DNA of 53,948 nucleotides from positions 1 to 53,948 of IMG/VR virus record IMGVR_UViG_3300012665_000551; one strand, 5' to 3'. Below, piece after piece: positions 18,301-36,167 of this stretch (within the stretch, counting starts at the first letter, position 1; each line of letters begins with the position of its first letter). Position numbers and translations under genes: made by a program. Under the pieces are notes generated by a model that did no database searches, was not told the DNA's origin, and was given only the letters and a program-made list of their open reading frames with translations. The stretch comes from a virus. Its lineage: Duplodnaviria > Caudoviricetes.

Positions 18301-20900
18301 CGTCTAACGACGATTCTACAGAATCTAACTGGGTAGACATTGCATACGGTAATAACAGATTCGTTGCAATTTCTGATAGCTCAGCTATGGCAGCATATAG
18401 TCTTGACGGTATAACATTTACTAAGAGCAATATGCCAGTTACTGCTGAATGGACTACAGTTGATTATGGCCAAGGCGTATTTAACGCAATGTCATACGGC
18501 GAGTACTCTGCTACTTCACCAGACGGTGTAACATGGACTTCTAGAAGCAGCATCTATCAAACTGTTGATGTTACAGTAACAGCCAAAGACACTAATGTGG
18601 GATATGTAGCAAGATCATTACCAACATCTGCATACTGGACTGATGTTATTTGGACTGGTACAAAATTTGTAGCAGTTGGACACGATAACGGTGCCGTAGG
18701 TGCAGCATATGCAGCATCAAGCACAACTGGTGAATCTTGGAGCTCTGTGACACTTGGAGTAGTAAGTGGACAGTATGAATATTCTGCTGTATCTTATAAC
18801 GGCAGCAGTACATATGTTGCAATTTTAACTAACACTCGTCATGTAAGCACATCAACTGATGGAGTTACATGGGCAGGAACTGTTAATGCTATTCCAGGAT
18901 CAGCATCTCAGTGGAGTGACTTAGCTAACAACGGAACTAGATTCGTAGCAATCAGTGCCAGTGCTAACAGAACTGCACACAGTACAGACGGTGTTACATG
19001 GACTAACGGAACAATCTCCGCTTCCGCTACAGAATATACCAGCATAGCAAACGGTACTATTAACGGTACTAACTATTTTGTAGTTACTTCGGGATTAACT
19101 TCAGCTAGCCAGGTAAGTGCGTATTCAACAGACGGCATTACTTGGACTGCTAACGCAACAGGCTTCCCAAGTTCACAACTTTGGAGTTCAGTGGCATACG
19201 GTGGTAGCAGATTTGTTGCTGTATCTGGCAATACTGCAACTACTAGTACCGCAGCAGCGTACAGCACTAATGGTACAACATGGGCAGCAGCAACGATGCC
19301 AGGCGCAGCAGCACGTTGGAACAAAGTAATTTACGGTGGTGGCGCATTTACAGCATTTGCTTACAACAGTAATAGAACTGCATATTCCACTAACGGCGTT
19401 ACATGGGTAGAAGGTCCAGCATTGACTTCTACAGCTAACTGGTATGCTGGTGCATATGGAAACAGTAGAAATGTAGTATTAGCTACCGGTGGTACAACCT
19501 CTGCAGCAAGTAACAACTTTGTATTGGATACTAACTTATTGACTACTAGCTCAGGTACAACTGATCTCAACGTTAACGATAGACTAGTATTCCAACGTGA
19601 TTCTACTAGTGCTGAAATATTTGGTGGTGTAAGATACGAAGATACTGTATATTATGTTACTAGTATTGCTAATAGTACACAATTTACTATATCTACAACA
19701 CGCGGCGGCAGCAATTTTGTATTAAGTAATAGCAGTGGATCAATGTTAGCAACTGTAAGTAAAAATTATACAACTTCTGCACTAGGAAATTATCTAGGAA
19801 CACCGCAGTGGGTAGTACTTGCTTCTGGTTCACAAGGATTGATGCGTATTAGCCAAGGAGCTAGAGCAATCGGTAGAGCAACAGTAGTTGCTAATACCAT
19901 AAGTTCAATCAAGATTCACGAGCCAGGTTCAGGATACACAGTAGCACCTACAGTAACAATCACTGATCCTAATAATACAGGAGCAGATGCTACAGTTCAA
20001 GTTAGAATTGGTACTGGAGTACTAGCACAACCAACATTTGTGTCTAGAGGATCTAGTTATTCAGCTGCTTCCGCTGAAGTAGTAGGCGACGGTTACGCTG
20101 ACAATTATCAAGTAAGTTCGTTCATTGGCATTAAAGATCTAAATGCTATACCTAGAAATGGTTCTAGCTTTAGAGTAGTTGGTATTGACGATGTCTACTA
20201 CAGAGTTGTTAACGTAACGAACTTATCAGGTCAGTCTGCTCCGTACACTGCAACTATTCAAATTAGTCCAGCCTTTGCAGCAGCTGAAACACCAGAACAT
20301 GAAACTGATGTAACAATGCGTATACGTTATAGTCAAGTTCGATTAACAGGACACGATTTCTTAGATATTGGTACTGGAAATCAAACAGATACTAACTATC
20401 CTAACTTACCAGTATATGATCCAATTCCTGCCAACGAAACTGTTGATACGAACGGTGGTCGTGTGTTCTACACAAGTACTGACCAAGACGGTAACTTCCG
20501 AGTTGGTGGTTTGTTCAACGTTGAGCAGTCGACTGGTGTTGCAACATTGAATGCTGACGCATTTAACATTGCAGGATTGAACGAACTAAGTTTGGGATCA
20601 GTAGCGTTAGGTGGTGCAGGCGCAACAATTAATGAATTCAGTACAGACCCGTTCTTTACTGCGGATTCGGATACTGTTGTACCAACACAACGAGCAATTA
20701 AAGCCTACATTACTAGCCAAATCGGTGGTGGCGGCTCTAGTTTGAACGTAAATACCCTTACAGCAGGTGTAATATACATTGCAGGTCAGACGATTGCGAC
20801 AACAACTAATGTTGCAATCAACATAAATACAAAAGTTAATTTCAAAGGTGGTATTGCAGGCGATGCCCTTGTGTTGAATTACTTCTTATTAAACAATTAA
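12396..20900 (+). CDS. Giant tail fibre/appendage protein (2834 aa), paralog of the 1851 aa gene
   Basis: Same N-terminus (MAEFKLGR...W), CBM5/12-like repeats, four CxRD helical repeats, many S.DG.TW repeats, shared C-terminal YSQVRLTGHDFLDIG...GGRVFYTSTDQDGNFRVG; TAAATA at 12369-12374. Confidence 0.75.
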   Translation: MAEFKLGRIRFVWKSDWITSTTYYKDDVISYGGKTFLCVVGHSAAADFYTDLNNVPSKWNQFSDGQDWKGDWNDAVTYKVNDIVKYGGLLYIANLGHTSGSTLEEDQSKWDLLAESFNWTSGWDTDTTYKVNDLVKYGGYVYICTEAHTSALTTALGLEDDQAKWDEFSVGVDWKGDWTANTRFKVGDIVKYGGTTYVCNLHHTSALTTALGLEADQAKWDYYNQGFEYKGTWTTDGAVRYKINDVVKYGSGTWICTTAHTQTTSFVTDQTNWAQFVEGIEYENDWLPGLVYQNGDIVKYGGNSYISTTTHLSSSVPPSDNTNYDLFTEGFKFFGDWNSITTFKIGEVVRLNGYTYVAVANSTNQSPPNAIYWSLLNQGIKWRGDWVNATAYKLGDAVKYGPNSYITILAHDSTTGSDRPDNDISGTFWNLLAAGNEESVLTTSGDLVIYGGAGPTRLPIGDTGQVLTVSADNLPAWEYWGRVAKVFYVAPHGVNSPAPTYGLTIDQPWASIRYACDQIEKGYQNQNAGWLLAQNRTFIQKEIVEWTDYQITNNIAPFTSAFTYNKETCQRDMGLLVDAIAYDLTHTGNSRAIQAAERYFTALGVSYITGQEDETVASINYGVSLIGSVLAQAAPSVNYQGSNGILVADRILQVTSNSYAAETGTVEIATSLASIVTDAITAGDLTGLPTLDLPTYTLNVKTGQYYEVLPIIVPALTAVVGDELRGSRVSPAAKIIADNDKAKSVAAYQRLKTVSQDIVTNTTVTPSSGNTETQNKTSQNEGDAGSTTAVSRVTTLAAEIKDILTNGEAAADAFSTPDPTGYNTSYLIGYGDARAQLEANRAFIKAEITGWIFDNYSDTVTASSATDNSMTISDTSWMAVNMPIRFAASVGGVLTGVTYYVQSIISGTKFTVGATRDTIDVVPQTTASFSTTVQFYYISATCERDVGHIIDALKYDLTYGGNYQTRIAADAYFTYGVGTYGVGEGGVTLAAYTHMKSIVNSVILETAITRTPSNTATQNTAGTPGSAGSATFGSARMQDIVDTLTNSGTLPALIAPSVSWVSTELQTARTRLVNAKATIQSDAVEYVKREFPTLSFNYTTCSRDVGYIVDALGYDLAFNSNFASVKAGLAYRRGTSSAQLVVADQLAATQAILDFISKEASFIAASGAQALVDLIWTDLIAYVNTGTSPLIIGTNTPDTNLNLINGAKILELNKEFLVAESTAYIDLTNNSTVTSATTTTDRFTSSSTSWMVAGDKIRFVGTAFGGVNTTTDYFVKQVIGGTEFTISETLDGAVKNLTTATGTMTVVYSYDSAKCQRDVRETIDAIVHDMIYVGNYASTYAAKYYRNALTGSKLENMFLVRNGCGARNMTLTGLDGSSDGNLTAQQDALLPANAFGTRRPRAGAYVSLDPGWGPNDSRVWVTTRSTYVQNVTTFGIGCVGQKIDGSLHSGGNDSIVSNDFTQVLSDGIGAWVTNLGRAELVSVFSYYNYIGYLAENGGKIRATNGNNSYGTYGAIAEGVDVTEVPVTGKINNRNTEASVDEVLTDGSRVLLMEFGNAGSEYTSATFNIAGAGSGVSTLGNETRDGGVFNVRLTDPGDSSGTGGVGYITAGNQGQAGSTTSITLAASDIQGSDVYVGMSIYLTAGLGAGQYGYIATYNSASKIATVNKESTGTAGWDHVIAGTAIVAPDVTTTYSITPRITFTAPNYTQAKANMPASRDWSDVVWGNGSGSYSAVSTTGGTGTFASFDVSRINGVYTVTLYAGGTLYAAGQVLTIAGTSLGGTSPANDLIITISSVTSPSGGIVTFTYVGNAVTPRFVAVARDSLTGAVSSNGIDWTDITLPGSATQWSAIAYGVVSNVGYFVAVAKESSTAAWSTNGLNWNSANLGDTVDWCDIAYGNGTFVAIAESDSSTAFRAVSTNGGSTWAFNTVATGAKAIAYGGGKFVIVEGNFSNSFAYSVNGSVWTVGTLPSNDDSTESNWVDIAYGNNRFVAISDSSAMAAYSLDGITFTKSNMPVTAEWTTVDYGQGVFNAMSYGEYSATSPDGVTWTSRSSIYQTVDVTVTAKDTNVGYVARSLPTSAYWTDVIWTGTKFVAVGHDNGAVGAAYAASSTTGESWSSVTLGVVSGQYEYSAVSYNGSSTYVAILTNTRHVSTSTDGVTWAGTVNAIPGSASQWSDLANNGTRFVAISASANRTAHSTDGVTWTNGTISASATEYTSIANGTINGTNYFVVTSGLTSASQVSAYSTDGITWTANATGFPSSQLWSSVAYGGSRFVAVSGNTATTSTAAAYSTNGTTWAAATMPGAAARWNKVIYGGGAFTAFAYNSNRTAYSTNGVTWVEGPALTSTANWYAGAYGNSRNVVLATGGTTSAASNNFVLDTNLLTTSSGTTDLNVNDRLVFQRDSTSAEIFGGVRYEDTVYYVTSIANSTQFTISTTRGGSNFVLSNSSGSMLATVSKNYTTSALGNYLGTPQWVVLASGSQGLMRISQGARAIGRATVVANTISSIKIHEPGSGYTVAPTVTITDPNNTGADATVQVRIGTGVLAQPTFVSRGSSYSAASAEVVGDGYADNYQVSSFIGIKDLNAIPRNGSSFRVVGIDDVYYRVVNVTNLSGQSAPYTATIQISPAFAAAETPEHETDVTMRIRYSQVRLTGHDFLDIGTGNQTDTNYPNLPVYDPIPANETVDTNGGRVFYTSTDQDGNFRVGGLFNVEQSTGVATLNADAFNIAGLNELSLGSVALGGAGATINEFSTDPFFTADSDTVVPTQRAIKAYITSQIGGGGSSLNVNTLTAGVIYIAGQTIATTTNVAININTKVNFKGGIAGDALVLNYFLLNN
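20454..20508 (+). repeat. 55-nt perfect direct repeat, copy 2
   Basis: Identical to 11906-11960. Confidence 0.9.
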
Positions 20901-20911
20901 TGGAGATATAA

Positions 20912-21232
20912 ATGGCAACAGGATTATTAGGACAAGCAGCTTTAGCTGCTACAACGAACACATCAGTGTACGTCGTGCCCGCATCCACTTTTACTGTACT
21001 TTCTGTGTCAATTTTGAACAGAGCAACAACTACAGCAACCGTTAGAGTGGCACTTGCAGATAGCACAACGCCAACAAACGCTGAATGGATCGAGTATAAC
21101 ATAGAACTCGGCGCAAGCGGAGTGCTAGAAAGAACAGGCATTATGATGAATGCCGGCAAACAATTAGTAGTTTATGCCAGTAACGCTAACGTTTCTGTTA
21201 GCTGTTTTGGCATTGAAACTTCAACCACATAA
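20912..21232 (+). CDS. Small beta-rich virion adapter-like protein
   Basis: VYVVPA...SVSILNR...VRVA...IEY...GVLERTGIMM.AG..LVVYAS; GGAG SD. Confidence 0.65.
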   Translation: MATGLLGQAALAATTNTSVYVVPASTFTVLSVSILNRATTTATVRVALADSTTPTNAEWIEYNIELGASGVLERTGIMMNAGKQLVVYASNANVSVSCFGIETSTT

Positions 21233-21246
21233 CAGGAGCAGGTAAA

Positions 21247-21573
21247 ATGGGAAGACAAGTAACTTCATTTGGAACAGAGGGCGTATCAAATAGAACCCTG
21301 ATAGCTAGCGCAACATTGGTAGCCGGCGAAAGAATTTTTGCAAATACAACAGCCGGTCCTTTCACGCTAACATTACCGTCAACACCAGCTGACGGCGCCA
21401 CAATTCAAATTATTGATGTAGCTGGAACTTTTAGAACAAATAACGTAACTGTTGCTCGAGGCGGCGAAAAGATTCAAAACCTTGCAGAAGATTTGACTCT
21501 TAATCTTAACAACGCAGCAATTACAATGATTTATAGCGGCTCAACCTTTGGTTGGGTATTCGTTGGCCCATAA
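21247..21573 (+). CDS. Stand-alone tail-fibre hinge/adapter-like domain protein
   Basis: NTTAGPFTLTLPSTPADGATIQIIDVAGTF.TNNVTVAR.G..I...EDL...Y...GW, a repeat typical of T4-like long tail fibre proximal subunits. Confidence 0.6.
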   Translation: MGRQVTSFGTEGVSNRTLIASATLVAGERIFANTTAGPFTLTLPSTPADGATIQIIDVAGTFRTNNVTVARGGEKIQNLAEDLTLNLNNAAITMIYSGSTFGWVFVGP

Positions 21574-21588
21574 TAGGAAATATTAGAC

Positions 21589-22662
21589 ATGGCAAAACTT
21601 TCTGATTTACTTTCTACGAGAGAAATCACTGCCAACCAAACTAACCTTGAAAAAGGAAAAGTTTGGACCATAACTAATACTGACCAGTATGCTTGTGTTT
21701 TAGAAGACATTGGCTTTTGCTGGCAGTCACCGGGTTGTGGGACAGCGACTATCGAAGTATGGGGGGCAGGTGGCAGTAGTTCAAAACAATGCTGCTGCTC
21801 CGTGAGCATGCCAGGAAATGCGCCTGCTTACTCTAAAAAAACAATTGCAGTATTTCCTGAGTCAAACGTTATTGCGTATGCAGGGTTACCTTGTAAAAAC
21901 GATGATCTTTGCTTCCGCGGATGCAGCCAACCTAGTCGAGTGGTATGGGAAAATGCTCGAGATCTATGCGGGTCAACTAGAGGATGTATGTGCTCACAGG
22001 GCGGTATCAGTGGACATGCGTTCTGTTTAGGTGATGGCGGTTCGGGTTATAGCTCACCATATTGCTGTTACAAAGATTGCGGATTCTGTTTTACACAGAT
22101 CACAACAGGTAGCGATACTGGACGTTGCGGAATTATCTGTAACTTTGGTCGACGTTGCCGCAGCGGCGGTACAGATGGTACCGGTGACTTAATTTGTTTA
22201 GCAAGTGCATACGGTGGCGACATCAACAAGCAAGGGCTTTTTAGCAAAATGGATTTTAGACATCAAAACGCTCCTTGTAACTGCTGGTTTACTCAGTATG
22301 TTCCATACGCAGCAGGTGTATTTTCTGAAGATGCAGGATACATTGTTACCAGCATGGACGGTGATAGTCCAGGATATAACTGGTCAGGTGCTGGTATGGG
22401 CGCATTTACTCAAGCATTAACAGGTATATCGCCAAATCCAAATGGCGGTATGGCATTTATGCCGTGTCAGGCTGCTAATGCCTGCGGATGTTATGAACAA
22501 ACTGGTTGCGCACATGTACTAGCATACGGACTGGCCGCACCCGGCGGTCAACCATGCGGCGGCGTTCGCGATCACGCACACCCGGGCGGTATGGGCGCAG
22601 TTAGAATCACGTATCGTGGTACTAACTCAACAGAGAAGAACTGTCGTAGGGGGACTATATAA
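21589..22662 (+). CDS. Cys/Gly-rich protein A (putative fibre tip or adhesin)
   Basis: About 29 Cys in 357 aa by manual count; IEVWGAGG, CCC, FRGCSQP, GGMGAVRI. Confidence 0.7.
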   Translation: MAKLSDLLSTREITANQTNLEKGKVWTITNTDQYACVLEDIGFCWQSPGCGTATIEVWGAGGSSSKQCCCSVSMPGNAPAYSKKTIAVFPESNVIAYAGLPCKNDDLCFRGCSQPSRVVWENARDLCGSTRGCMCSQGGISGHAFCLGDGGSGYSSPYCCYKDCGFCFTQITTGSDTGRCGIICNFGRRCRSGGTDGTGDLICLASAYGGDINKQGLFSKMDFRHQNAPCNCWFTQYVPYAAGVFSEDAGYIVTSMDGDSPGYNWSGAGMGAFTQALTGISPNPNGGMAFMPCQAANACGCYEQTGCAHVLAYGLAAPGGQPCGGVRDHAHPGGMGAVRITYRGTNSTEKNCRRGTI

Positions 22663-23948
22663 TGGCTGTATTAAGTCAACTGTTAGGCAACAGAGATTTA
22701 GCCTGGGAAGACAACCTAGAAAAAGGTCGTATCTGGGTTTATCAAGAAGGAAACGAATACTCTACTAAGTTCTGTATGAACGGAACTGGTGGTTGCTGGT
22801 GCTGGAAATCTCCGGGCACCGGTAAAGTGGTTATTGAAGCATGGGGAGCATCTGGTTCAGGTGCTAGAAGTTGTTGCTGTGCGAAGGGTGTTGCAGGAAA
22901 TCCAGGCGCATATGTAAGAAAATGTATCTGTGTTAATAATACAAACTGGATGTGTGGCTGTATCGGATATAGCTGCGGCAATGCTGACTCTGAACAATTC
23001 CGCGGATGCAGCGAACCTACTATGGTAAATTGGACTGGTTGCGCAATATATCCACAATATCTACAACCATTAAACCCACTGGAATTAAACGGTCAAGATT
23101 CATGGAAAGGAAATAATCCATGGGGTCTTGGAAATCAAGAAACTCTTGGAAGTGTTGAATATCATACACCAGGCGGCTACTATCAAGGTGGTACTAGTTG
23201 TATTGGTACAAACAACTGTGTATGTGCTAATGGCTACGGCAATGCAGGAAATGGCTGTAATGGCCAAAGTAACTTATGCTGTGCTGCTGGTGCAACTTGT
23301 GGATGTCTATGTGCTCAAGGTGGTAAAGGCGGATACACTATCTGTTCAAACAATCCAACTCCGTTTACCTGTTTCACAAGCGGCCCTGGGTTCTGTGGTA
23401 CAAAAGTTGGTTATCACAACATGTGTAATACTTCACAACACGAATGCGGTATAATTTGTAATATGAGAACCACGCGATGCACTAATTGGAACTGGTACGA
23501 TATTGCCTGCGGTTTCGGCGGCGATGTAAACTGCTGTGGTATGTTCTCATGTGTTACTATGCTAAACTGTACAATGCAATGTAACTGTGCAGGACAGCAT
23601 CACATACACACTTCAGCTGGAAAATATGCAACTGAAGGCTCAGTACTTTCATTTACTCCAGCTCAAGACAGTGAAATGGCAAGAAGCTCAGGAATGAATC
23701 TTACAGGTCAACGTTTGTTAAATGCTTCAGGCAGCAGATGGCCATCATACGGATACGTAAATGCTTGTTATAACAGTTTTAGTGGTTGTAACTGCTACGA
23801 AGATATGGGATGTCATCCAGGCAATCCAGCAGGAACACCAGGCATGGCAGCATTGCCATGTGATCAAGTTCGAGATCACGGAGTTCGTGGCGGCCACGGT
23901 GCTGTAAGAATTAAATTTATACCTGACGAAGGAGCAACAGCATACTAA
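22662..23948 (+). CDS. Cys/Gly-rich protein B (paralog)
   Basis: About 41 Cys in 428 aa; IEAWGASG, CCC, FRGCSEP, CAQGG, GGHGAVRIKF. Confidence 0.7.
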   Translation: MAVLSQLLGNRDLAWEDNLEKGRIWVYQEGNEYSTKFCMNGTGGCWCWKSPGTGKVVIEAWGASGSGARSCCCAKGVAGNPGAYVRKCICVNNTNWMCGCIGYSCGNADSEQFRGCSEPTMVNWTGCAIYPQYLQPLNPLELNGQDSWKGNNPWGLGNQETLGSVEYHTPGGYYQGGTSCIGTNNCVCANGYGNAGNGCNGQSNLCCAAGATCGCLCAQGGKGGYTICSNNPTPFTCFTSGPGFCGTKVGYHNMCNTSQHECGIICNMRTTRCTNWNWYDIACGFGGDVNCCGMFSCVTMLNCTMQCNCAGQHHIHTSAGKYATEGSVLSFTPAQDSEMARSSGMNLTGQRLLNASGSRWPSYGYVNACYNSFSGCNCYEDMGCHPGNPAGTPGMAALPCDQVRDHGVRGGHGAVRIKFIPDEGATAY

Positions 23949-23949
23949 T

Positions 23950-24978
23950 ATGGCAAACTTAAAAACTTTATTAGAAAGAAAATTAGATCAAATTGACTAC
24001 GATGAAACTAATCTAGCAAAAGGCCAAATTCAAAGTTTTGGTGTATCTAGTTCAGGACATTACGGTGGTGCAACCAGCGGCGGTACAATATCATGTATAT
24101 TTTGCTGGCTTGCTCCTGCAAACGGTCGAGCTGTTATAGACGTTTGGGGAGCAGGTGGAAGTACTCCGTTGTCTCGATGCTGCGGAGCTAGTTTACCTGG
24201 CAACCCAGGCGCATGGTCTAGAAAGTGTATCTGTATAGATGCAGGACAGATGATCTGCGGTAAGATTGGATTCAGCTGTAATAACGCTACTGCTGCTTGC
24301 TTTAGAGGTTGCAGCGAACCAACAGAAGTTTGTTGGGCAGGAAAAGATAGAACTGGCGGAACTACAGTCCGTGGTTGTATCTGCGCACAAGGCGGTCGCG
24401 GCGGCACATTTATATGTATGACAGGTGGCGGCGTTATGTACTGCTGCTTTGCAAACGGTAATGCATTCTGCGGAACACTCAGTGGATCAAATGCAGGGTG
24501 TGGTGTAATTTGTAACTATGGTGTTGCTACTGGTACTGCGGGATGTGCAGAATCTTGGGGCGGAGACATCAATAAGAGAGGCGGATTCTCTTGCATGACT
24601 TTTGGATTTTGCTGGGCAGCATGTATCTGTGCAGTAACTGGACACGTTGCAGTTGCTCCTGGCATTTATGCCTGCGACGGCATGGTAGTGACACATGGTT
24701 ATGAAAATGATAATGGTTTTGCACAATGGAGCGGTTCCGGTCTACATCAATATATTTCGGCACTAAATGCTGGAAGCCCACAACCATCAAGAGGCATACC
24801 TTTTGCAACTTGCTACAACGGCGGTAAGGCATGTGCTTGCGGTGAAAGAATGGGCTGCGGAGTTTATGTTCCGCACGGTAGCGGAGCTCCAGGTACTAAT
24901 CCTTGCGGCGACTTTTGCCATCATGGCTGGAGAGGCGGCAACGGACTAGTTAGAATTAACTTCATACCAAAGGATTAA
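23950..24978 (+). CDS. Cys/Gly-rich protein C (paralog)
   Basis: About 31 Cys in 342 aa; IDVWGAGG, FRGCSEP, CAQGG, GGNGLVRINF. Confidence 0.7.
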   Translation: MANLKTLLERKLDQIDYDETNLAKGQIQSFGVSSSGHYGGATSGGTISCIFCWLAPANGRAVIDVWGAGGSTPLSRCCGASLPGNPGAWSRKCICIDAGQMICGKIGFSCNNATAACFRGCSEPTEVCWAGKDRTGGTTVRGCICAQGGRGGTFICMTGGGVMYCCFANGNAFCGTLSGSNAGCGVICNYGVATGTAGCAESWGGDINKRGGFSCMTFGFCWAACICAVTGHVAVAPGIYACDGMVVTHGYENDNGFAQWSGSGLHQYISALNAGSPQPSRGIPFATCYNGGKACACGERMGCGVYVPHGSGAPGTNPCGDFCHHGWRGGNGLVRINFIPKD

Positions 24979-24983
24979 GAAAA

Positions 24984-25640
24984 ATGGAAAAGAATTTTGT
25001 ACACGTTTTACCAGACGAACCGAATAAGAGTGCAACTACAAAAAATCTAACAGTGGATTGCGTATATACAGGCGTTCAATTTTTGCTGTTAAGTGTTAGA
25101 GAAGGCACAGTTGCAATGATAGAGGGCAGTAGCAATTCACGCGAAATCCTCGAAGCTGATTTGAGATTTACTGGTGAGAGAAGTGAGCCAGGTACATCAT
25201 ACATTATATTAGATGCTGATGTCCATACATGGGAAGCAGCGTATTTGAATCATGCATACACACACGGTGATGTAGCTGATTATACTGCTACATTACCAAC
25301 AGGTGAAACTTGGACCTATATGTGGAATGACGTAGGCGGCACTACCGGAGTTATTAGCCAGTGTCATCATGTTAATGGTTTAAAATATAACGCTTCTACT
25401 AACACGTATACTAGACCACCATATATAACATTCCAAACATCAACTCCCGCTCAGTGGGAAGAAGGTATTACTAGCCAGATCAAGATCATGGAAGAAGCAT
25501 TAATGAACAATGCCAAATATACTAAAGCGCAAATTGAAGAGATAACTGAATATAAAAAGTATTTAGACAGCGCAATTGCCAAGTATAAAGGTGTTGACGT
25601 TTGGAAGATTCCTACTCCAAAATATCCAAATATGGGCTAA
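24984..25640 (+). CDS. Putative tail fibre assembly chaperone-like protein
   Basis: Directly follows the Cys-rich genes; helical C-terminal part (EYKKYLD...WKIPTPKYP) is reminiscent of Tfa-type chaperone ends. Confidence 0.45.
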   Translation: MEKNFVHVLPDEPNKSATTKNLTVDCVYTGVQFLLLSVREGTVAMIEGSSNSREILEADLRFTGERSEPGTSYIILDADVHTWEAAYLNHAYTHGDVADYTATLPTGETWTYMWNDVGGTTGVISQCHHVNGLKYNASTNTYTRPPYITFQTSTPAQWEEGITSQIKIMEEALMNNAKYTKAQIEEITEYKKYLDSAIAKYKGVDVWKIPTPKYPNMG

Positions 25641-25730
25641 AAACTCCCTAAACTTAGAACCAAGATTAGCCTTGCATGATTGATTATATGGATATATAAT
25701 CAATGCAGGGCTAATTTATTTCTGGAGTTT
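25641..25730 (+). promoter_or_regulatory. Long intergenic hairpin pairing with the SD, with a late-like promoter (GATATATA) at its apex
   Basis: AAACTCC/GGAGTTT, ATTAGCCTTGCA/TGCAGGGCTAAT and TTGATTATAT/ATATAATCAA arms. Confidence 0.65.
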
Positions 25731-25732
25731 AA

Positions 25733-26665
25733 ATGAGATCTAAAGCATTTTTTATTAATGGCGGCGCAGGTAGAATGATTTGTTCAATACCTGCTTTCGA
25801 AAAATACCAAGAAGAATCAGGGGACAAGGACTTTATTATTGTCTGCGAAGGCCCAACTGATACTTTTAAAGGCCATCCTACACTCGAACAGCATGTGTAT
25901 GATTCATGGCATAGAAATCTTTTTCAAGAAAAGGTTAAACACATGGATGTAATAAGCACAGAGCCTTATCGGATCTGGGAATATTACAATCAACAATGCT
26001 CCATTGCACAAGCATTTGATATCCAATTAAACAACAAAGGCATTAGAGATCTACCTAAACCTACTCTTAGACTATCTAAAGACGAGTTACTCAACGGTAG
26101 ATATGTGATCGGCGAAGTCAAAAAGAAACTTAAAAAAGAAAAAATTGTAGTGTTTCAGCCGTTTGGTAGGGGTATAGAGTATATCGATGAAACACTAATT
26201 GATAAAAGCGGTCGAAGTTTTGAACTTAAAGATGTTAAAGAAATAATTAAAAAACTTCAAGCTGAAGGATATGCAGTTATTCTAATGTCAGAATTTAAAG
26301 TAGATTTCACAGATGCAAAATTTAAAGAAGAAGTTGCTACTCCAGAAAATTTAGGAATTCGTCAGTGGGCTGCTATTATTAAATATGCCGACAAGTTCTT
26401 AGGCTGCGATAGCTTAGGACAACATCTAGCATACAGTATGGATACACCATCGGTAGTGGTAGTTGGATCTACTTATCCAATAAATGTGTCATATCCAAAT
26501 GCTAGTAATGTAGATATTCTTGATATGGGTGAAATTGATAGAGAATATAGTCCTATCAGAGTTACACAAGACGAACGAATTGATAGAAAGAATGAACCGT
26601 TAATGACTATGACTAAAGAAATAGTTGAATTGGTAATTGAACACGTAACAGGAAAAACTAAATGA
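25733..26665 (+). CDS. Glycosyltransferase, GT9 (heptosyltransferase)-like, GT-B fold
   Basis: N-terminal GGAGRMICSIPA; VVFQPFG; WAAIIKYADKFLGCDSLGQHLAYS..TPSVVV.GST resembles the GT9 DSG..HLA.A...P.V.L.G.T signature. Confidence 0.7.
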   Translation: MRSKAFFINGGAGRMICSIPAFEKYQEESGDKDFIIVCEGPTDTFKGHPTLEQHVYDSWHRNLFQEKVKHMDVISTEPYRIWEYYNQQCSIAQAFDIQLNNKGIRDLPKPTLRLSKDELLNGRYVIGEVKKKLKKEKIVVFQPFGRGIEYIDETLIDKSGRSFELKDVKEIIKKLQAEGYAVILMSEFKVDFTDAKFKEEVATPENLGIRQWAAIIKYADKFLGCDSLGQHLAYSMDTPSVVVVGSTYPINVSYPNASNVDILDMGEIDREYSPIRVTQDERIDRKNEPLMTMTKEIVELVIEHVTGKTK

Positions 26666-28482
26666 GCTTAACTACTATTGAGAAAACAAAAAAACCAGTC
26701 TGGATTGCAGGAATTGCAAGAGGACATAACGCAGGTGTGTGCCTATTAAAAGACGGAGAAATTGTCTTTTCTATCGAAGAAGAAAGATTAACTCGACAGA
26801 AGTATGATGGCGGCCCGTTTGCTAGCATGATCAAGATTTTAGAGTATACTGATAAACTTGATTTTTTAGTTATTGCACATACACAACCATTACACGAAAC
26901 TGCCGGAAAAATTGACTATTCCGGCGACGACGTCTATACAGGACTTGCTAGAAAAATTGGACTAATTGATCGTAAAGCAAATTCACGTAACCATCCTCAA
27001 GTTATTGATCTAGCACATATCCATCACAAGTTACATGCCGCTTGTGCTTTTTACCGCAGCGGCTGGGAAGATGCAGTGGCTCTTATTGTTGACGGAGCAG
27101 GCACGTTCTTTCCGTTTAGTATTCATAACCAGCAACAGATGTTTTGGGAAGTTGAATCGATAATCGACTGCAATTATCCTGCTGAGTTTAAAACTTTATA
27201 CAAGCACTACGGAACAAGAGAAGGTACAGCAGCAGCTTATATTCCGGATTTTTCTTCGCAATCATTAGGCGAAGAAGGCAGTACACATGAAGCACTGATC
27301 AGTGATCGTGCAGGTATTGTAAAAGTGTACGAGGGCATAACAGAATACTGCGGTTTCTCTGGAATTGAAGCAGGCAAGACTATGGGATTATTTCCATACG
27401 GAAAACCAAATGACGGCATTCCGCCTTTATTTGATACCAGTGGCGCTCACACAATTTCTAATAGAAATTTAATTATTCCTAGATATCCACAAGGATCTAC
27501 AGTAAATCAATTTTTATTCCCAGCACTAGAAGAAAACCCACAAGATCCAACTGAAGATATCACCACTATGCAGAATCGTAGAGATCTTGCATATGCTTGC
27601 CAGACCCAATCACAGGCACAAGTGGCTAATTTAATCCGTGCTGCGGTAGAAAAGAGTGGTAAAAAGAAAGTTGTTATCAGCGGAGGATACGGATTAAACT
27701 GTGTTGCTAATTATCATTACCTTGAAGCTCTTAAAGATGAAGGTATTGAAATTTATGTTGAACCTATCAGTAATGATGCAGGCACTGCAATGGGTGCTGC
27801 TTTGCTATTCTGGCACGACCTTAAAGGTGATACTACTATTAGACCTTACGGTACATTGTATCTTGGACCAGAGCAGAAATATACAGCAGAAGAAGTTGCC
27901 GATAAATTAGAAAACGATGAAACTATCAGCGATGCTACACATAAAGACGTTGTTAAATTACTACGTGAAAAGAATATTGTTACAATTTTCCAAGGTCGTA
28001 GTGAAAATGGGCCACGTGCATTAGGTAACCGCTCTGTGTTATTTGATCCAACATTTGAAGACGGCAAGGATTATGTAAACATGGTTAAACGCCGTGAATA
28101 TTTCCGTCCTTTTGCAGGATCAATTTTAGCCGAAGATGCACAAGCATGGTTTGATCTACGCGGCATGAAAGACAGTCCGCATATGATGTATGCGGTAAAT
28201 TGTCAAGACGGTATTGCTGAAAAGATTCCAAGCATTATTCACGTAGACGGTACGTGTCGTATTCAAACAGTTACTCCTGAACAGAATAAACATTACTATG
28301 ATCTAATTAAAGCATTTAAGGATGAAACAGGTATTCCTATTTTGTTTAATACTAGCTTTAACTTAGGCGGTGAGCCGTTAGTTGAAACTGTCGATGATGC
28401 TATTTGGACTTTACGAAATTCGGATATCGAATATCTGTATCTTCCAGAAATTGGTAAATTATTGCACATTCCAAACGCTTAA
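26662..28482 (+). CDS. Carbamoyltransferase, NodU/CmcH/TobZ family
   Basis: EEERLTRQK, HHKLHAACAF, VDGAG, GKTMGL.PYG, SGGYGLNCVAN, DAGTAMGAA, GRSENGPRALGNRS, KRREYFRPFA, HVDGTCRIQTV, NTSFNLGGEP. Confidence 0.93.
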   Translation: MSLTTIEKTKKPVWIAGIARGHNAGVCLLKDGEIVFSIEEERLTRQKYDGGPFASMIKILEYTDKLDFLVIAHTQPLHETAGKIDYSGDDVYTGLARKIGLIDRKANSRNHPQVIDLAHIHHKLHAACAFYRSGWEDAVALIVDGAGTFFPFSIHNQQQMFWEVESIIDCNYPAEFKTLYKHYGTREGTAAAYIPDFSSQSLGEEGSTHEALISDRAGIVKVYEGITEYCGFSGIEAGKTMGLFPYGKPNDGIPPLFDTSGAHTISNRNLIIPRYPQGSTVNQFLFPALEENPQDPTEDITTMQNRRDLAYACQTQSQAQVANLIRAAVEKSGKKKVVISGGYGLNCVANYHYLEALKDEGIEIYVEPISNDAGTAMGAALLFWHDLKGDTTIRPYGTLYLGPEQKYTAEEVADKLENDETISDATHKDVVKLLREKNIVTIFQGRSENGPRALGNRSVLFDPTFEDGKDYVNMVKRREYFRPFAGSILAEDAQAWFDLRGMKDSPHMMYAVNCQDGIAEKIPSIIHVDGTCRIQTVTPEQNKHYYDLIKAFKDETGIPILFNTSFNLGGEPLVETVDDAIWTLRNSDIEYLYLPEIGKLLHIPNA

Positions 28483-28527
28483 TATTTTCATGTCTCGAAC
28501 CGATAAATATAACATGAGGAACGAGAC

Positions 28528-28968
28528 ATGATAAATTTTAGCAAATATTTCAGCAATGATGTAAAAAATACCCTTAGGGTTCAGAATGGAGTTAACTTTT
28601 CCTATAAGGGTCCATGGGTTCCAATGCTCAGCGAGTCTACTAAACTTGATGAGTGGTATGTTGGCGATTTTATGGCAGCGGAATATACTATAGTAATTGA
28701 TCTTAGCAATACAGCAAAAGAAATGATCAAGGCATTAGTAGTTGCCGGCCCAACATCTGCTACAGTAACCGTATACGGCAGAACAAGCACTACAATACCG
28801 CTGTTAGACGTATTTGCAGCCGTAGATAATTCTAAAGTAACTATCACTGTAAGCCCGTTAGTTAGTATCGACGGATCAACTTCGGATGTATCTTCTGTAG
28901 CACTAGGCGGAAAAGTAATTTACAGCGCCAACTATTATCATACACTTAACGCTCTAACTCCTTTCTAA
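28528..28968 (+). CDS. Hypothetical virion-associated protein
   Basis: 146 aa, GAGGA SD, TAAATA at 28504-28509; loosely similar to the C-terminal domain of the 2576 gene. Confidence 0.65.
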   Translation: MINFSKYFSNDVKNTLRVQNGVNFSYKGPWVPMLSESTKLDEWYVGDFMAAEYTIVIDLSNTAKEMIKALVVAGPTSATVTVYGRTSTTIPLLDVFAAVDNSKVTITVSPLVSIDGSTSDVSSVALGGKVIYSANYYHTLNALTPF

Positions 28969-29022
28969 CTTTTGTGCTAAATACTTTTACGCAGTAGTTG
29001 AAGTAGGAATAATAGCGAGAAT

Positions 29023-29616
29023 ATGACAATACAATACATACCCCTTGAGTCTAAAAGTGGCTTTAAAAGCCCTGGATTCTACGTCGACGAAACCGGAAGA
29101 GTTTTTGTTAACGAACTAATAATCGCACCAGAAAACGGTCTAAGTGTTTTACGAGCAGACGAAGTCTATATACGTGGAGTACAATTATTAGAAGGTGCAG
29201 GTGACGGTTCGTCACTTATTGCTCTAGGCAATAATATACTTGCTAGTTCGCTTACCACATTAGGCACACAAGAATATCTATACGTTGACGGTGATATCAG
29301 TTTCTCCCAAGGAGTAAACGAATATATTAGTGTAGTCAATGGTCTTGTTGCAATAGATAGTATTTCTGCAACAGGCAGAATCGATAATATAACTGTTGGA
29401 TTAACAGATCCAGCAGCATCAAAATTTACAACCACAACAATTACAGGTAGTGCAACAGTTCAAGGCGCCAGCGTATTGACCACTGTAACAGCTACTAGTA
29501 TTTCCGCTTCAGGAAATATTGAAGTAGAGACACTCCCCACTTTGGCAAATCACGTAACAAGAAAAGATTATGTTGATAATAGAATATCAGCATTTGCAAT
29601 TGCTTTCGGAGCATAA
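29023..29616 (+). CDS. Putative fibre connector protein
   Basis: SSLTTLGT, GRIDNITVG...P....FT, HVTRKDYVD; ends FAIAFGA; TAAATA at 28978-28983. Confidence 0.65.
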   Translation: MTIQYIPLESKSGFKSPGFYVDETGRVFVNELIIAPENGLSVLRADEVYIRGVQLLEGAGDGSSLIALGNNILASSLTTLGTQEYLYVDGDISFSQGVNEYISVVNGLVAIDSISATGRIDNITVGLTDPAASKFTTTTITGSATVQGASVLTTVTATSISASGNIEVETLPTLANHVTRKDYVDNRISAFAIAFGA

Positions 29617-29624: not shown

Positions 29625-32600
29625 ATGGCAAAAAGAAAAATTAATAATTATGTATTTGAATCAGGTATCAGCAAAGATGCTAACTTGTTTCCTAAAGCGT
29701 ATGCACTTTTTGTTGCAAATAAAGAATTTTTAAAAGCTCAAGTTGTAGCTTTTATCAATTATAATATTGAAAACAATGTCGGAGTATACAACGGATATGC
29801 ATACAGTTCAGACAAATGCTTTCGAGACGTTGGCTATTTTCTAGATGCAATTGCACACGATTTACGCTACGGCGGCAACGTAAAAATTAGACAAGTATCA
29901 GAATATTTCTGGATTGACGGCCAGCCTATGATTCGTGGTGATGTTAGTCCAGAAATTACAGGACAACAATATATACGTGATCTTCTTAACAATTATATTT
30001 TTACAAATACTCCTGTAACTCCAACTTACGATCAAGTAGCTGTTAGTCAAGTTACAATTCCAGGAAACAACGGCGAAAGTGGGGCAGCAGCCGCAAACAC
30101 AGCACTGTGGGCAATCTTAGGCGACGTTATCACTAACGGTACACCTTCTATTCCAGAAAAAGTTACTGGTGTTACTTCGATTAGAATAAGAGAAAAAATT
30201 GACCAGTCAGCATTATTATTGATAACTGATACAAGTAGTGGTACTGTGTTGTATAACTTTGCTGATCCTGCGAACTCAGCAGATATTACATATAAAAAAG
30301 GTTACAGCAGCGGCGACAACCAACCGCTTAGTGATTTAGATTTTCCTAAATGGTGGCACTCGTCTGATACAATTACAATTATTGACCTATCAGCAAATAC
30401 CTCAACGTTATCAGCAGATGCTGACATACAGATTTTTGTCGAAGATCCTTATCAAACTGTTAGACCTTGGGATTTCGGTACAGACGCTATTGAACGTATG
30501 CGTGTATCAACTCCACAGGCCATGCTTGATGCTGACTTTGAATACGGATTACAGCCTACAAAGTGGCAGGCAATTGGTGTACAATTAGGATATCCTTCAA
30601 TCTATGAAATACCAGGAACAGATGCTGGTGTAACTACTATTGTTACTGATGCATCAGCAACTACTAACTATTTTGGTTCCTCTCAAATTACAGTCACTAC
30701 TAGCGGTCCTCATGGATTCACTGTAGGTACAGCTATTACTGTAAAGGGTGTATCACAAGGTGTTCAATCAGCATCGAGAGCAGAAGGCTCGTTTATAATC
30801 AGTGTAGTACCAACTCCGAATTCATTTATATATTATGCAACATCTAAAGTTGGCACAACTCTAAATCAGAGTTTGTATACTCCAAACATACAGATTCGAC
30901 AAGGCGGGTTTTATACTGGATCATCAATTGGAGTACCTACTTTTTCTTTAGTTAGCAATGGTGCAACACTAGGTATTACATCACAGTTTGTTACTCCAAC
31001 GGATTCTAGCAATGTATCGTTTGTTGGAACTTCACCTGGTATAGGTTCTCCAATTTCCGGGTCCCCAAGTATTCAGTCCGGGACCTCAGTAACTGGTGTT
31101 GTTGGATCAGGAGTAATTGTTGCATCTGTTAAAAATACAACAACTGAATTAGATACATTTATTGATGTTGACAGCACTGTGGGAATACAGTCTGGCATGG
31201 CTGTAGCTAACGATCTTGGTCAGGCACGATTTATTTCCAATGTATTAGGAAATCGATTATCGCTTACGGGCGCAATTGGTAGAGTACTTACTGGGTCAGA
31301 AGGCGTCGATGTTGGTGTAACTGGCATTAATGTTGAGTCTATTGGAGTAGGTGCTGTATTTGATGTTAATCGTACCGGGGGAGTATATGCCGTTATTGGA
31401 TCAACAGACAGTACAGTTAACGGACAAAATTATGCAAAGGGCGATGCTATTAGAATTCTTGGCACATCAGTCGGTGGAGCTACGCCCTTAAACGATATAT
31501 TAGTTGTTGTTCAAGATGTCGATAGCGGTGGCGCAATCATCAACTTTACATATAGCGGAACAGCTATATCCGGTGGTGCAACATACACAAATGTATTGCA
31601 AGGATCAACAACTGGTACTGGTACTAACGTTGTAATATCTGTTGTAAGAACAGGAGGCAGCGGAATTTACAATGTCACTATTACAAACGGTGGTGCCGGC
31701 CACGAGCCTGGAGATCAAATTACATTCTCGGGCGGCTTCCTTGGAGGTTCCAGTCCTGCGAATGACATTGTTATACAAGTAAACGGAGTTTCGTTTGGAA
31801 CACAGGCAGCAGTAGACTTTACTGTGTTAAGCGGATTAGGAGTTTCAGGCAATGCAGACTACGTTGGATTAAGTGGATCAACTGAAACACAATCCGGCGC
31901 AGGAGCAGTATTTACAATTACACGTACTGGCGGATCATACTTTTCTGCTAGAACTAACAATGGAACTGGCTATAGAGCAGGAAATAAAATACTTATTGCG
32001 GGTACTGATTTAGGTGGCACAACACCCCTAAACGACTTAGAGTTAGAAATTCAAACAGTAAATCCTACAACAGGAGCTATTCAGTCAACGCTTGAATCTG
32101 GCACAATTGCACTTGGCGAATCAATATCGATATATCCGACCTTAACGCTATCTGAGCCAACTACAGGAATTATTACTAGCGGTACAGCATTAACTACTGG
32201 TGCGTTAGCTACTATCGAAGTATCGTTCCCTGCAAATCACGGTCTAGTTCCGGGTTCGTCAATACTCACTAGTATTACATCAACACCCGCACCAACTTTA
32301 AGTGCGGCAACCGTAGCACTGCCAAGCTCATTAACATGGCAAGGAATAGCGGCCAGCGATGGAAGATGGGTAGCGGTGGCGAACGGTAGCAGCTCCACCG
32401 CTAGATCAATTGACGGTAGTGGGTTCGTTGCAGGTGGTACATTACCAGCAAGTGCAAACTGGACTGCTGTCGCTGGCGGAACATATAGCGGTACTAACGT
32501 ATTCGTTGCTGTTAGAAACGGCAGTGATACTGCTGCAAGAAGTACAGACAACGGAGTAAGCTGGGGCAATATAACGTTGCCGTCAGTGACTAATACCGCT

Positions 32601-35501: not shown

Positions 35502-35504
35502 AGA

Positions 35505-35786
35505 CTATCGAGCAAGTTGGCTGCTTTCCCAAGCAGTCAGCTTGTTTAGCAATTCTTTTCTGATATTTGAAATAGTTTCTCTAGTTTCAACAACATCTGT
35601 AGGCATGCGATTGCTTATATACAAAGCTTCGTGATGTCTGTCTAAAAAGTTTATTTCATTTTTTAACGAAGTTAATAGTTCAGTTAACGAATTCTGTAAT
35701 CCTTCATTCGTAACCGCTGCAATTCGTTTTTGAAACCCTGTGTATTCCTGAAGGAATTGGGGGCTATTCTGTATTTTTGGAATCAT
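35505..35786 (-). CDS. Hypothetical helical protein
   Basis: 93 aa ORF, last of the minus-strand block, overlaps the upstream gene end. Confidence 0.6.
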   Translation of the reverse strand: MIPKIQNSPQFLQEYTGFQKRIAAVTNEGLQNSLTELLTSLKNEINFLDRHHEALYISNRMPTDVVETRETISNIRKELLNKLTAWESSQLAR

Positions 35787-36156
35787 TTGTAATCACCAGT
35801 ATAGTTTCTAATTTAGTTCTAGTAATGTCATTATTTAATGTATGTCTAAGACCGGTATGAATCTGTTTGGGCAGCGTATTAAGGCTTGCCCAGCATACAG
35901 TGTTTGATGCTGTAGTGATAAATTCATTGTCTACGAGACATACATATGTGCCATACTCAAACCCACTATCAGCACTAACATACAATTCTATAGGCAGTAT
36001 TCGTCCTCTAGAATATTTAGACATTAACTCTTCCGCACAAGAAATTACTGCTCCGTCTTTAATAAAGGTAGGAACAGTCCATTTTTCTTCTTCTAGGATT
36101 AATAAAATTCGTCCTGTAGATTTTGATAAAAATAGTAATCCTGCACGTTGTTGCAT
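35764..36156 (-). CDS. Degenerate NUDIX-like protein (start reassigned to MQQRAG at 36156)
   Basis: AGLLFLSKSTGRILLI...W resembles a Nudix N-terminus, but no GX5EX7REUXEEXG box is present. Confidence 0.5.
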   Translation of the reverse strand: MQQRAGLLFLSKSTGRILLILEEEKWTVPTFIKDGAVISCAEELMSKYSRGRILPIELYVSADSGFEYGTYVCLVDNEFITTASNTVCWASLNTLPKQIHTGLRHTLNNDITRTKLETILVITNDSKNTE

Positions 36157-36167
36157 ATTACTATATA

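Follow-up and report, generated by a model that had tools for sequence, protein, structure and literature searches.

What are a glycosyltransferase and a carbamoyltransferase doing among the tail-fibre genes of a very large virus? The question is raised by IMGVR_UViG_3300012665_000551, an IMG/VR virus fragment of 53,948 nucleotides (53.9 kb; "the window" below means this whole stretch), in which the two enzymes are encoded after two small adapter genes (a106 and a108), three Cys-rich genes (C1, C2 and C3) and a gene for a 218-aa protein (o218). An earlier note on this DNA had read ten open reading frames (ORFs) here, all on the + strand, which are indeed found where it placed them, and had proposed that the enzymes add a carbamoylated glycan, or a carbamoyl group alone, to fibres or Cys-rich tips of the virion. 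The answer developed here is that the enzyme pair is obligatorily linked to the Cys-rich genes and that the chance of its decorating the fibre apparatus with carbamoyl-heptose, judged from the genes involved, is about even.

The linkage is seen from both sides. In a scan seeded with the GT9-like glycosyltransferase, which took in the best 80 of 127 relatives (IMG/VR loci, numbered with L), the carbamoyltransferase (CT) lies next to the GT9-like gene in 80/80 loci, as a complete ORF within 2.2 kb in 78, with the remaining two (L034 and L048) ending inside it. Wherever at least 4.5 kb of upstream sequence is available, a Cys-rich ORF (defined as at least 200 aa, at least 7% Cys and at least 13% Gly) is present, in 67/67 loci; there are three such ORFs in 64 loci, two in 2 and one in 1. 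The reverse scan, seeded with two divergent Cys-rich proteins (10 + 70 loci), recovers a GT9-like gene in 66/80 loci and both enzymes in 62/80. The 14 loci lacking a GT9-like gene stop at most 2.1 kb past the match, before the expected gene start, and in the four that have only the GT9-like gene the contig itself breaks off. The co-occurrence of pair and trio, which the earlier note had offered as a check on its proposal, is thus borne out in every informative locus seeded from the enzyme, and the shortfall of the reverse scan is one of contigs that are too short.

The arrangement is kept over considerable sequence divergence, with GT9 identity to the window as low as 51% among the loci and 36-41% for P-SSM2 and the AG-345 viruses, and Cys-rich identity to C3 dropping to 20-27% in relatives. 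Among 50,697 phage records, the enzyme pair gives no megablast match, and 23 of the records have a GT9-like relative at 35% identity or more; these come from S-CAM1, S-CAM3, S-SSM7/S-SSM6a, Sf-FS3, P-SSM2, P-SSM5 and the AG-345 single-cell viruses. C3 itself has no tblastn match in the phage records; the Cys-rich proteins of S-SSM7 and S-CAM3, used as queries in its place, match 21 records, from the same phages. On inspection, Cys-rich ORFs adjoin the enzyme pair in AG-345-O18, AG-345-P14 and P-SSM2. In L060 the orientation of the pair is reversed with respect to the fibre genes, to which it is still adjacent. The fibre module holds one conserved block, made up of two adapters, one to three Cys-rich adhesins, an o218-type partner, the GT9-fold enzyme and the O-carbamoyltransferase.

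The genes as such have been catalogued before. The window enzymes are orthologs of T4-GC 302 (annotated as hypothetical; 41-57% identity) and T4-GC 303 (48-63%), members of the cyanomyovirus 'LPS gene' (lipopolysaccharide, LPS) set T4-GC 302-308, which corresponds to P-SSM2 gp307-313 and S-SSM7 gp120-133 and is also found in S-CAM1 and S-CAM3. There, T4-GC 302/303 hold the same place as in the window, after a106/a108-type, Cys-rich and o218-type genes and between fibre genes. The window differs from that set in belonging to a clade with genomes of ~350-364 kb, in having no heptose genes adjacent to the pair, in a shorter GT9-like protein (310 aa, vs 370-415 aa) and in a covarying hairpin with a sigma-70-like promoter before the pair. 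In the available text of the cyanophage papers, CT and heptose genes are listed as host-like or 'LPS' genes of unknown role (PMC7378029; PMC3037559, which considers them possibly 'stuffer DNA'), and the available parts of PMC1079782 and PMC3037559 draw no link between 'LPS genes' and Cys-rich fibre genes. A full-text literature search (with subscription journals outside it) found, among the titles and abstracts listed, nothing on phage-encoded heptosylation or carbamoylation of fibres.

The window, which CheckV estimates to be ~15% of a genome, is a fragment of a very large T4-like, Kyanoviridae-like myovirus, as judged from sequence matches. Its PHROG matches include tail sheath, tube, neck, terminase, a gp32-type single-stranded DNA-binding protein and a dNMP kinase, hence the T4-like assignment; Kyanoviridae cyanophages are the closest isolate relatives of both enzymes, and the closest metagenomic relatives are contigs of 350-364 kb. 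Nearly all of its genes are on the + strand. ARAGORN finds no tRNA in the window, and PADLOC has no match for the five proteins submitted to it.

The CT has the two domains of a NodU/CmcH-type enzyme, the type named in the earlier note, with a Kae1-like N-domain (PF02543, Carbam_trans_N, 96 bits, E 3.8e-27) and a YrdC-like C-domain (PF16861, Carbam_trans_C, 194 bits, E 1.4e-57). It matches phrog_1601 (E 2.7e-168) and, over its full length, the PDB entry 7xb6, the novobiocin carbamoyltransferase (9s2t), GdmN and TobZ (E 6e-59 to 4e-45). Its HIHHKLH aligns to HHRAH of 7xb6, and GPRALGNRS and NTSFN are identical; following the TobZ literature, we take the residues of these three motifs to be catalytic. 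The coupling of the two enzyme genes through ATGA, also remarked on earlier, is confirmed, the CT start codon (26662-26664) overlapping the GT9-like TGA (26663-26665). Identity of the CT is 63% to S-SSM7 gp121 and 48-51% to the S-CAM3, S-CAM1 and P-SSM2 proteins. It is not a NodU ortholog (NF041651, 143.7 bits against a cut-off of 1000), and NodU and NolO stand outside the phage clade. In a quick maximum-likelihood tree of 45 rows, in which long branches make the deep order unsafe and the validated 5-hydroxymethylcytosine (5hmC) carbamoyltransferase is not among the rows, all 36 CTs adjacent to a GT9-like gene (that of the window and 35 others) form one clade (SH-aLRT 98). Outside that clade are S-TIM4 orf42, an S-RIM44 fragment, S-SSM7 gp123, the second copies in L081 and L083 and the Xoo-sp13 enzyme, as well as cellular NodU and NolO and a Streptomyces enzyme. 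The S-RIM44 'thymidylate synthase' beside its CT was considered as a link to DNA modification and set aside, the gene being ThyX and the CT of another lineage.

Direct carbamoylation of the protein, the other version in the earlier note, is not supported. The HypF model TIGR00143 scores 23 bits against a cut-off of 466 and HypF_C_2 stays below its cut-off, and because this match is marginal, HypF-like S-carbamoylation of the Cys-rich proteins was rejected; the CT is of the sugar or small-molecule O-carbamoyltransferase type. Two further neighbourhoods of this enzyme family may be recorded here. In the jumbo Xanthomonas phage Xoo-sp13 (L112:2757-6452), an annotated glycosyltransferase lies directly 5' of a 765-aa carbamoyltransferase, so that glycosyltransferase-carbamoyltransferase pairs recur outside cyanophages, and in Cupriavidus NodU is found beside NodS and a sulfotransferase.

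The partner enzyme matches PF01075 above the curated cut-off (26 bits vs 22, E 6.9e-6; 25.8 bits in the window's own record), which upholds its description as GT9-like, with the match confined to residues 169-257 in the C-terminal lobe. Its modelled two-lobe GT-B fold is closest to solved GT9 enzymes, WaaF and WaaC among them. The C-terminal nucleotide-sugar motif D(S/T)G..H.A is present as CDSxGQHLA in the GT9-like family; D226, S227, G229, Q230 and H231 are invariant in 34 homologs and align to VDTGLSHL of WaaC and NDSGLMHV of WaaF, an alignment to which hhalign gives a low probability (4-6%) and whose stretch is also spanned by the Pfam match. The N-lobe, which binds the acceptor in GT9 enzymes, has no sequence alignment to any solved GT9 chain, and its isoelectric point varies from 5.0 to 9.3 across the family, making charge uninformative as a proxy for membrane association. 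A profile of the family finds nothing significant among PDB sequences, the best being an unrelated cytidylyltransferase at E 0.046. The homolog search gave 2780 matches, of which the 120 listed are all at least 70% identical and carry uninformative names, giving no cellular context. Distant homologs (24-26% identity over ~80% of the length) occur in 32 Vibrio/Aeromonas phage records of ~78 kb, including Aeromonas phage HJ05.

The earlier note had invoked the heptosyltransferases AAH and TibC, which, according to the available text of PMC4358343, work in the cytoplasm with ADP-heptose and O-heptosylate an adhesin whose gene lies close by. That family (BAHT), as described in the same text, is set apart by an N-terminal beta-barrel and an iron finger of four Cys, and membership had to be given up for the phage enzyme because it has neither of these features, nor the score on the BAHT equivalog. 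More specifically, residue 1 of the GT9-like model aligns from TibC residue 96 (96-391 covered), leaving no room in the predicted structure for the beta-barrel; in place of the four conserved Cys of the C-lobe, its only four Cys are scattered, at 17, 38, 89 and 225, with no CxxC; and TIGR04414 gives 18.9 bits against a cut-off of 200. By analogy, the enzyme would at most function like a BAHT.

The donor sugar is probably heptose, since an ADP-heptose cassette is found in relatives of the window, often beside the pair, and this gene association lends support to the carbamoylated-glycan version of the earlier proposal. The genes directly after the CT in P-SSM2, S-SSM7 and S-CAM3 bear the annotations heptose kinase/adenylyltransferase, 'phosphoheptose isomerase', 'cysteine dioxygenase' and nucleotide-sugar epimerase, and in P-SSM2 and S-CAM3 these are followed again by a fibre gene. 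Four of the five parts of the cassette are encoded in all five large metagenomic relatives (G001-G005, three of them 98-100% complete): a kinase for heptose 7-phosphate, with rfaE_dom_I as its best NCBIfam model, an adenylyltransferase for heptose 1-phosphate (rfaE_dom_II), a 6-epimerase for ADP-heptose (TIGR02197, E 1.5e-71) and a cupin. The fifth, a HAD phosphatase-like gene, turned up in G001, G002 and G004. The cassette lies just past the 1958-aa-type fibre gene in G001 (L101:8085-10926), G004 (L104:2272-5116) and G005 (L102:1052-3571); other examples are at L100:6410-9364 (G002) and L108:13791-16389 (P-SSM2). A GmhA of the SIS type is absent from the five large relatives, the P-SSM2 'phosphoheptose isomerase' matches HAD-type profiles only, and weakly, and for the P-SSM2 'cysteine dioxygenase', a cupin, there is a weak match to lyxose isomerase. 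A small cupin is always part of the cassette and is a candidate for the missing step; to judge from these matches, it may be a non-orthologous replacement of GmhA, and the published 'phosphoheptose isomerase' may be misannotated.

On the side of the possible acceptors, the three Cys-rich genes are paralogous, as the earlier note had it: C3 is 38% identical to C1 and 41% to C2, all match phrog_4205, and their Cys content is 8.1-9.6%, vs only 0-1.3% in neighbouring proteins, at a Gly content of 15-19%. When 59 members of the family, taken from the window and from related loci, are aligned, they show an N-terminal helix MAxLxxLL, a core WGAGGSG...CCC...PGN..GAY and a C-terminal strand GG.G.VRI, with C77 and C78 invariant and C76 nearly so. 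The AlphaFold model of C3 (pLDDT 82) finds as its best PDB match the fiber of cyanophage Pam3 (7ypx_A, E 9.5e-6, TM 0.37/0.48), followed by ALK/LTK glycine-rich domains (E 2e-4 to 1e-3) and the tail tip of mycobacteriophage Bxb1 (E 3.8e-3), the TM-scores of these matches being modest throughout (0.24-0.48). By sequence, PF21722 (Gly_rich_2) is matched by 9/59 members (best E 7.6e-10), C3 itself has no Pfam match at E <=1, and the family profile finds nothing significant among PDB sequences (best E 0.18). The predicted fold of the trio is thus that of glycine-rich domains of fibres and adhesins, and we read the three, from the model, as fibre-tip, receptor-binding-type proteins with an unusual cysteine load. 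The likeness to known receptor-binding proteins with such domains (the Pam3 fibre, ALK/LTK, the Bxb1 tail tip and, presumably, the T-even gp38-type adhesins) consists of the C3 model match and of Gly_rich_2 in relatives, whereas 8-12% Cys and an invariant CC within a conserved CCC are not described there.

The Cys-rich genes have a conserved partner in o218, whose type is interleaved with them in L060, L069 and L074, and in an alignment of 41 members Y28 and G30 are invariant. The label 'chaperone-like' given to it earlier is not confirmed: there is no Pfam, PHROG or NCBIfam match, and its ESM Atlas neighbours are all at or below 0.88, one of them in a cluster with PF16778 (tail assembly chaperone; 0.86), a weak lead on which o218 is possibly an assembly chaperone. 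In AG-345-O18, a marine single-cell virus (L193:3018-5294), a 758-aa Cys-rich protein (9.6% Cys) carries an N-terminus of the a106 type (MASGRLG...) as a fusion, which suggests that adapter and Cys-rich tip are one physical unit.

Put together, these elements suggest a pathway in which the GT9-fold enzyme would use ADP-heptose, made by the phage cassette elsewhere in the genome or by the host, to O-glycosylate, within the fibre apparatus, a protein that the phage itself makes; the likeliest acceptors would be the Cys-rich adhesins or an adjacent fibre. The translationally coupled CT would then convert carbamoyl phosphate and ATP to carbamoyl-AMP and O-carbamoylate the heptose, much as heptose II is carbamoylated in the LPS core of Pseudomonas, and the outcome would be a decorated receptor-binding tip. 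The heptose donor, the sugar as carbamoyl acceptor and the virion protein as glycosyl acceptor are elements that we infer. The principal argument for an acceptor in the fibre apparatus is the strict two-way linkage to one fibre-tip gene family; further support comes from the preservation of the block through rearrangement, from three isolate lineages in which fibre genes enclose the block together with the heptose cassette, and from an acceptor lobe unlike that of LPS enzymes. Decoration of the fibre apparatus by the pair can on this evidence be given equal weight for and against. A fuller account, in which a widespread family of T4-like cyanophages heptosylates its own Cys-rich, polyglycine-type tips by means of a pared-down GT9 enzyme whose accessory parts are unrelated to those of the TibC/AAH lineage, the CT caps the heptose, sulfotransferases and oxygenases vary the glycan and a cupin replaces GmhA, is plausible, with a probability somewhat short of even. 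Of the decoration pathway that the earlier note had sketched, the linkage holds and the heptose cassette has been added, while TibC/AAH membership, direct carbamoylation of protein and the late promoter before the enzymes are not supported.

Fibre decoration relates to known virion glycosylation and adhesin heptosylation. In mycobacteriophages, glycosyltransferases from the structural block glycosylate capsid and tail-tube subunits (Freeman et al. 2023, as cited in the available text of PMC12619734), but the glycosyltransferase family, the targets (capsid and tail tube C-termini) and the sugar are different, and that text reports no carbamoylation; PMC12619734 itself (the 'moraphage' paper, Arch Virol 2025) concerns a different lineage. 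A chemical likeness is found in the inner core of Pseudomonas LPS, for which the available text of PMC8005017 describes WaaC/WaaF and the NodU-family CT WapO/PA5005 in one cluster, WapO being the putative carbamoyltransferase for heptose II, with O-carbamoylated L-glycero-D-manno-heptose as the product. The acceptor there is Kdo-lipid A in the membrane. In the phage enzyme, the N-terminal domain shows no relation to those transferases in sequence, the genes of the pair keep company with fibre genes, and the CT and WapO are likened here as members of one family.

Several points weigh against a decorated fibre. No glycan has been seen on particles and there is no virion proteome for a pair-bearing phage, those in the available text of PMC3037559 being of S-SM1, S-PM2 and Syn9, none of which is among the phages with GT9-like matches. 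The acceptor half of the GT9-like protein, including the catalytic base, has no sequence-level match to solved GT9 enzymes; the window has no heptose-pathway gene, in the ~15% of the genome that it covers; and the heptose cassette is distant from the pair in G002 and G003. The 80-locus sets hold many near-identical contigs and overlap each other, so that their counts measure consistency and not independent events, and linkage within one hyper-variable module can mean co-inheritance instead of function. Finally, the terminator-like hairpin and sigma-70-like promoter before the pair, as read from sequence, are as compatible with an early unit of moron type as with a morphogenetic one, and the published view of the pair genes, in the available text of PMC1079782 and PMC2984593, is one of change to the host LPS or cell surface.

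The expression signals need to be considered in this light. The late-type motif of the window is xTAAATA (sites e.g. at 65, 4912, 12368, 20823, 28503 and 45102); its form ATAAATA has 8 occurrences on the + strand and none on the - strand, and ATAAATA or CTAAATA precedes the genes at 142, 5020, 12396, 20912, 28528, 29023, 40992, 45114 and 52844; the exact T4 late consensus TATAAATA has 0 sites in the window vs 5.6 expected. The late-like promoter that had been placed before the enzymes is not supported, as the 92-nt gap before the GT9-like gene (25641-25732) contains no xTAAATA and holds TTGCAT-N17-TATAAT inside a conserved hairpin. The hairpin has 11 consensus pairs, 10 of them with compensatory changes (23 sequences), and recurs with its U-run in the same position in L004-L055 and others; within it a TATA(T/A)AT box is conserved, preceded at a distance of 17 nt by a TTGnnn box. 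Only 4 sites of the form TTGnnn-N16-18-TATAAT exist in the window, one of them at 39902 before the dNMP kinase gene, and most relatives of the window clade have TTGnnn-N16-18-TAnnnT in or beside the hairpin, with positions shifted. An Rfam scan of 20-30 kb gave only a sub-threshold miRNA-hairpin match over this element, taken as chance. The hairpin resembles, in sequence, an intrinsic terminator of the upstream fibre transcript that overlaps a sigma-70-like promoter, and with the promoter embedded in it the pair in this clade looks like a transcription unit of its own, under a host-type promoter. The distant relatives L059, L069, L070, L071, L074, L076, L080, L081 and L083 have xTAAATA 25-61 nt before the GT9-like gene. 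The signals neither prove nor exclude a role of the pair in morphogenesis.

Such a unit could serve a change to the host envelope, in which the pair, supplied with ADP-heptose of phage or host origin, would attach carbamoyl-heptose during infection to a glycoconjugate of the host (LPS core, S-layer or some other surface glycan). This could block superinfection, keep progeny from re-adsorbing to debris or deter grazers, the place in the fibre module then being an accident of insertion into a highly plastic region. The moron-like promoter behind the terminator-like hairpin is what this explanation would lead one to see, characterised GT9 enzymes are mostly LPS heptosyltransferases (WaaF and WaaC being among the closest folds), and in G002 and G003 the heptose cassette lies among non-structural genes (Clp protease, aminotransferase). 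Carbamoyl-heptose is known in an LPS core (available text of PMC8005017), and the hypothesis is already in print (PMC1079782 and PMC2984593, in the parts available). However, in informative loci the pair is never apart from the Cys-rich genes, at GT9 identities of 36-81%, and such strict tracking of one fibre-gene family is not expected of an envelope-acting moron. Moreover, pair-bearing phages are lytic T4-like myoviruses, the N-terminal acceptor domain has no sequence similarity to LPS heptosyltransferases, and the distant relatives have late-type motifs before the GT9-like gene. The LPS of marine Synechococcus is reported to be without heptose and so would offer no native core acceptor. Remodelling of the envelope is, on balance, unlikely.

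The genes inserted at the pair in relatives bring up a different possibility, that the acceptor, made by phage or host, is not part of the particle at all; it could be a soluble protein, o218 acting transiently in assembly, or a free glycoconjugate or small molecule formed during infection, and the tailoring genes would diversify the product. These insertions include (i) a sulfotransferase (PF17784, E 7.5e-31) between or beside the pair in marine relatives, (ii) two to three paralogs of 180-220 aa with weak, sub-threshold likeness to 2-oxoglutarate (2OG)-Fe(II)-oxygenases, (iii) a 278-316-aa protein without assignment that starts MKRLFVFGCSYT and (iv) in some relatives a second GT9 copy (sites L186:13289-13861, L137:12664-14608, L117:11413-12339 and L058:10652-11635), and S-SSM7 has in addition a second CT, a halogenase-like gene and a methyltransferase-like gene. 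The whole resembles a tailoring island of natural-product or Nod-factor style (cf. the NodU, NodS and sulfotransferase of Cupriavidus), although no scaffold-forming enzyme (polymerase, nonribosomal peptide or polyketide synthase, chitin-synthase-like) was seen in the loci examined, and the genes that accompany the pair throughout are those of fibres, not of biosynthesis. A variable set of tailoring genes fits a surface glycan under diversifying selection and is also compatible with a small-molecule product; an acceptor outside the particle strikes us as distinctly unlikely.

T4-type phages glycosylate 5hmC, and a CT that carbamoylates a hydroxymethylated base beside a glycosyltransferase that glycosylates DNA would be a further explanation, which is however extremely improbable because PF00303 (thymidylate synthase/dCMP hydroxymethylase) is absent in 5/5 relatives, three of them 98-100% complete, with a control that matched 10/14 genomes. 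The earlier note, which had named clustering with dCMP/dUMP hydroxymethylases as fatal to its proposal, saw no hydroxymethylase in the window, and none is found among the scanned window ORFs; a Tet_JBP match is also lacking, which counts for little as its control was silent. A phage carbamoyltransferase of the same superfamily does make 5-carbamoyloxymethylcytosine (MetaGPA; PMC8670742), but in the available text of that study the DNA-acting CTs co-occur with PF00303 and those on unmodified contigs adjoin glycosyltransferases, and the window CT belongs to a clade defined by adjacency to a GT9-like gene.

Returning to the fibre apparatus as the preferred site of decoration, the surroundings of the pair are collected in Table 1. 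Both adapters match tail-fibre PHROGs, as the earlier note's term implied, a108 most closely phrog_31104 (E 6e-24) and also phrog_972 (tail fiber proximal subunit, E 6e-11), and a106 has the same position in relatives including S-CAM3 and P-SSM2. Fibre or virion genes do stand on both sides of the cluster; what that note had described is confirmed for gene content, Cys-rich trio, enzymes and flanks, and not confirmed for the late-like promoter and the chaperone label. The upstream fibre has its five CBM5/12 (chitin/carbohydrate-binding) modules near the N-terminus, and these domain matches hint that it binds a glycan. Downstream, o146 has no family match in the Pfam and PHROG scans and is probably structural. 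A 9-bp inverted repeat, CATGTCTCG ... CGAGACATG (28490-28530), brackets its late-type motif and Shine-Dalgarno sequence, takes in the start codon and may control translation of o146. Beyond the 1958-aa gene, a 666-nt stretch (35502-36167) separates it from minus-strand neck genes and is overlapped only by short ORFs (35764-36231, - strand, 155 aa).

Table 1. Features of the fibre module and its flanks, in positions of the window.
Feature	Position	Strand	Description	Matches and signals
Giant tail fibre	12396..20900	+	Tail-fibre protein, 2834 aa; upstream flank	phrog_9851 tail fiber, E 1.9e-191; PF02839 x5; late-type motif GAATAAATATA at 12368
a106	20912..21232	+	Small fibre-adapter-like protein, head of module	phrog_11338 tail fiber protein, E 2.8e-8
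a108	21247..21573	+	Small protein resembling N-proximal tail fibre/tail spike segments	17 PHROG families
C1	21589..22662	+	Cys-rich (8.1%, 29 Cys), Gly-rich (14.8%); putative fibre-tip adhesin	phrog_4205
C2	22662..23948	+	Cys-rich (9.6%, 41 Cys) paralog with ~90-aa insertion	phrog_4205
C3	23950..24978	+	Cys-rich (9.1%, 31 Cys), Gly-rich (18.7%) paralog	phrog_4205; AF2 model, pLDDT 82
o218	24984..25640	+	218 aa, conserved partner of Cys-rich genes	N-terminal F..(L)PD...Y.GP motif
Hairpin	25666..25714	+	Terminator-like; U-rich run to ~25724, then Shine-Dalgarno	Minimum free energy -29.9 kcal/mol, z -6.07
Promoter	25672-25700	+	Sigma-70-like, TTGCAT-N17-TATAAT, in hairpin	
GT9-like	25733..26665	+	GT9-fold (GT-B) glycosyltransferase, putative ADP-heptose-dependent	Ortholog of cyanophage T4-GC 302
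CT	26662..28482	+	NodU/CmcH/TobZ-type ATP- and carbamoyl-phosphate-dependent O-carbamoyltransferase	T4-GC 303, 'Nol-like carbamoyltransferase'
o146	28528..28968	+	Conserved downstream gene	Conserved synteny; own late-type motif CGATAAATATAA at 28503
o197	29023..29616	+	Small tail-protein-like gene	phrog_26941 tail protein, E 7e-4; late-type motif GCTAAATAC at 28977
1958-aa protein	29625..35501	+	Virion structural or fibre protein; downstream flank	phrog_5838 virion structural protein, E 1.3e-253

Cyanomyoviruses rank with the most abundant viruses of the ocean and of lakes, and their 'LPS genes' have gone unexplained since 2005. Should the host envelope prove to be the target instead, the strict linkage of the pair to one family of fibre genes would still need explaining. 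With the module present in five isolate lineages (S-CAM1, S-CAM3, S-SSM7/Sf-FS3, P-SSM2 and P-SSM5), the claim of fibre decoration is directly testable. If true, it would provide (i) the first glycosylated receptor-binding protein in a T4-type phage, (ii) a second, independent route of protein heptosylation besides TibC/AAH and (iii) a new layer of host-range determination, and genes supposed to be auxiliary metabolic ones would be re-labelled as morphogenetic. Host range and particle stability in seas and lakes would then be set in part by a fast-diversifying glycan that the phage itself makes.

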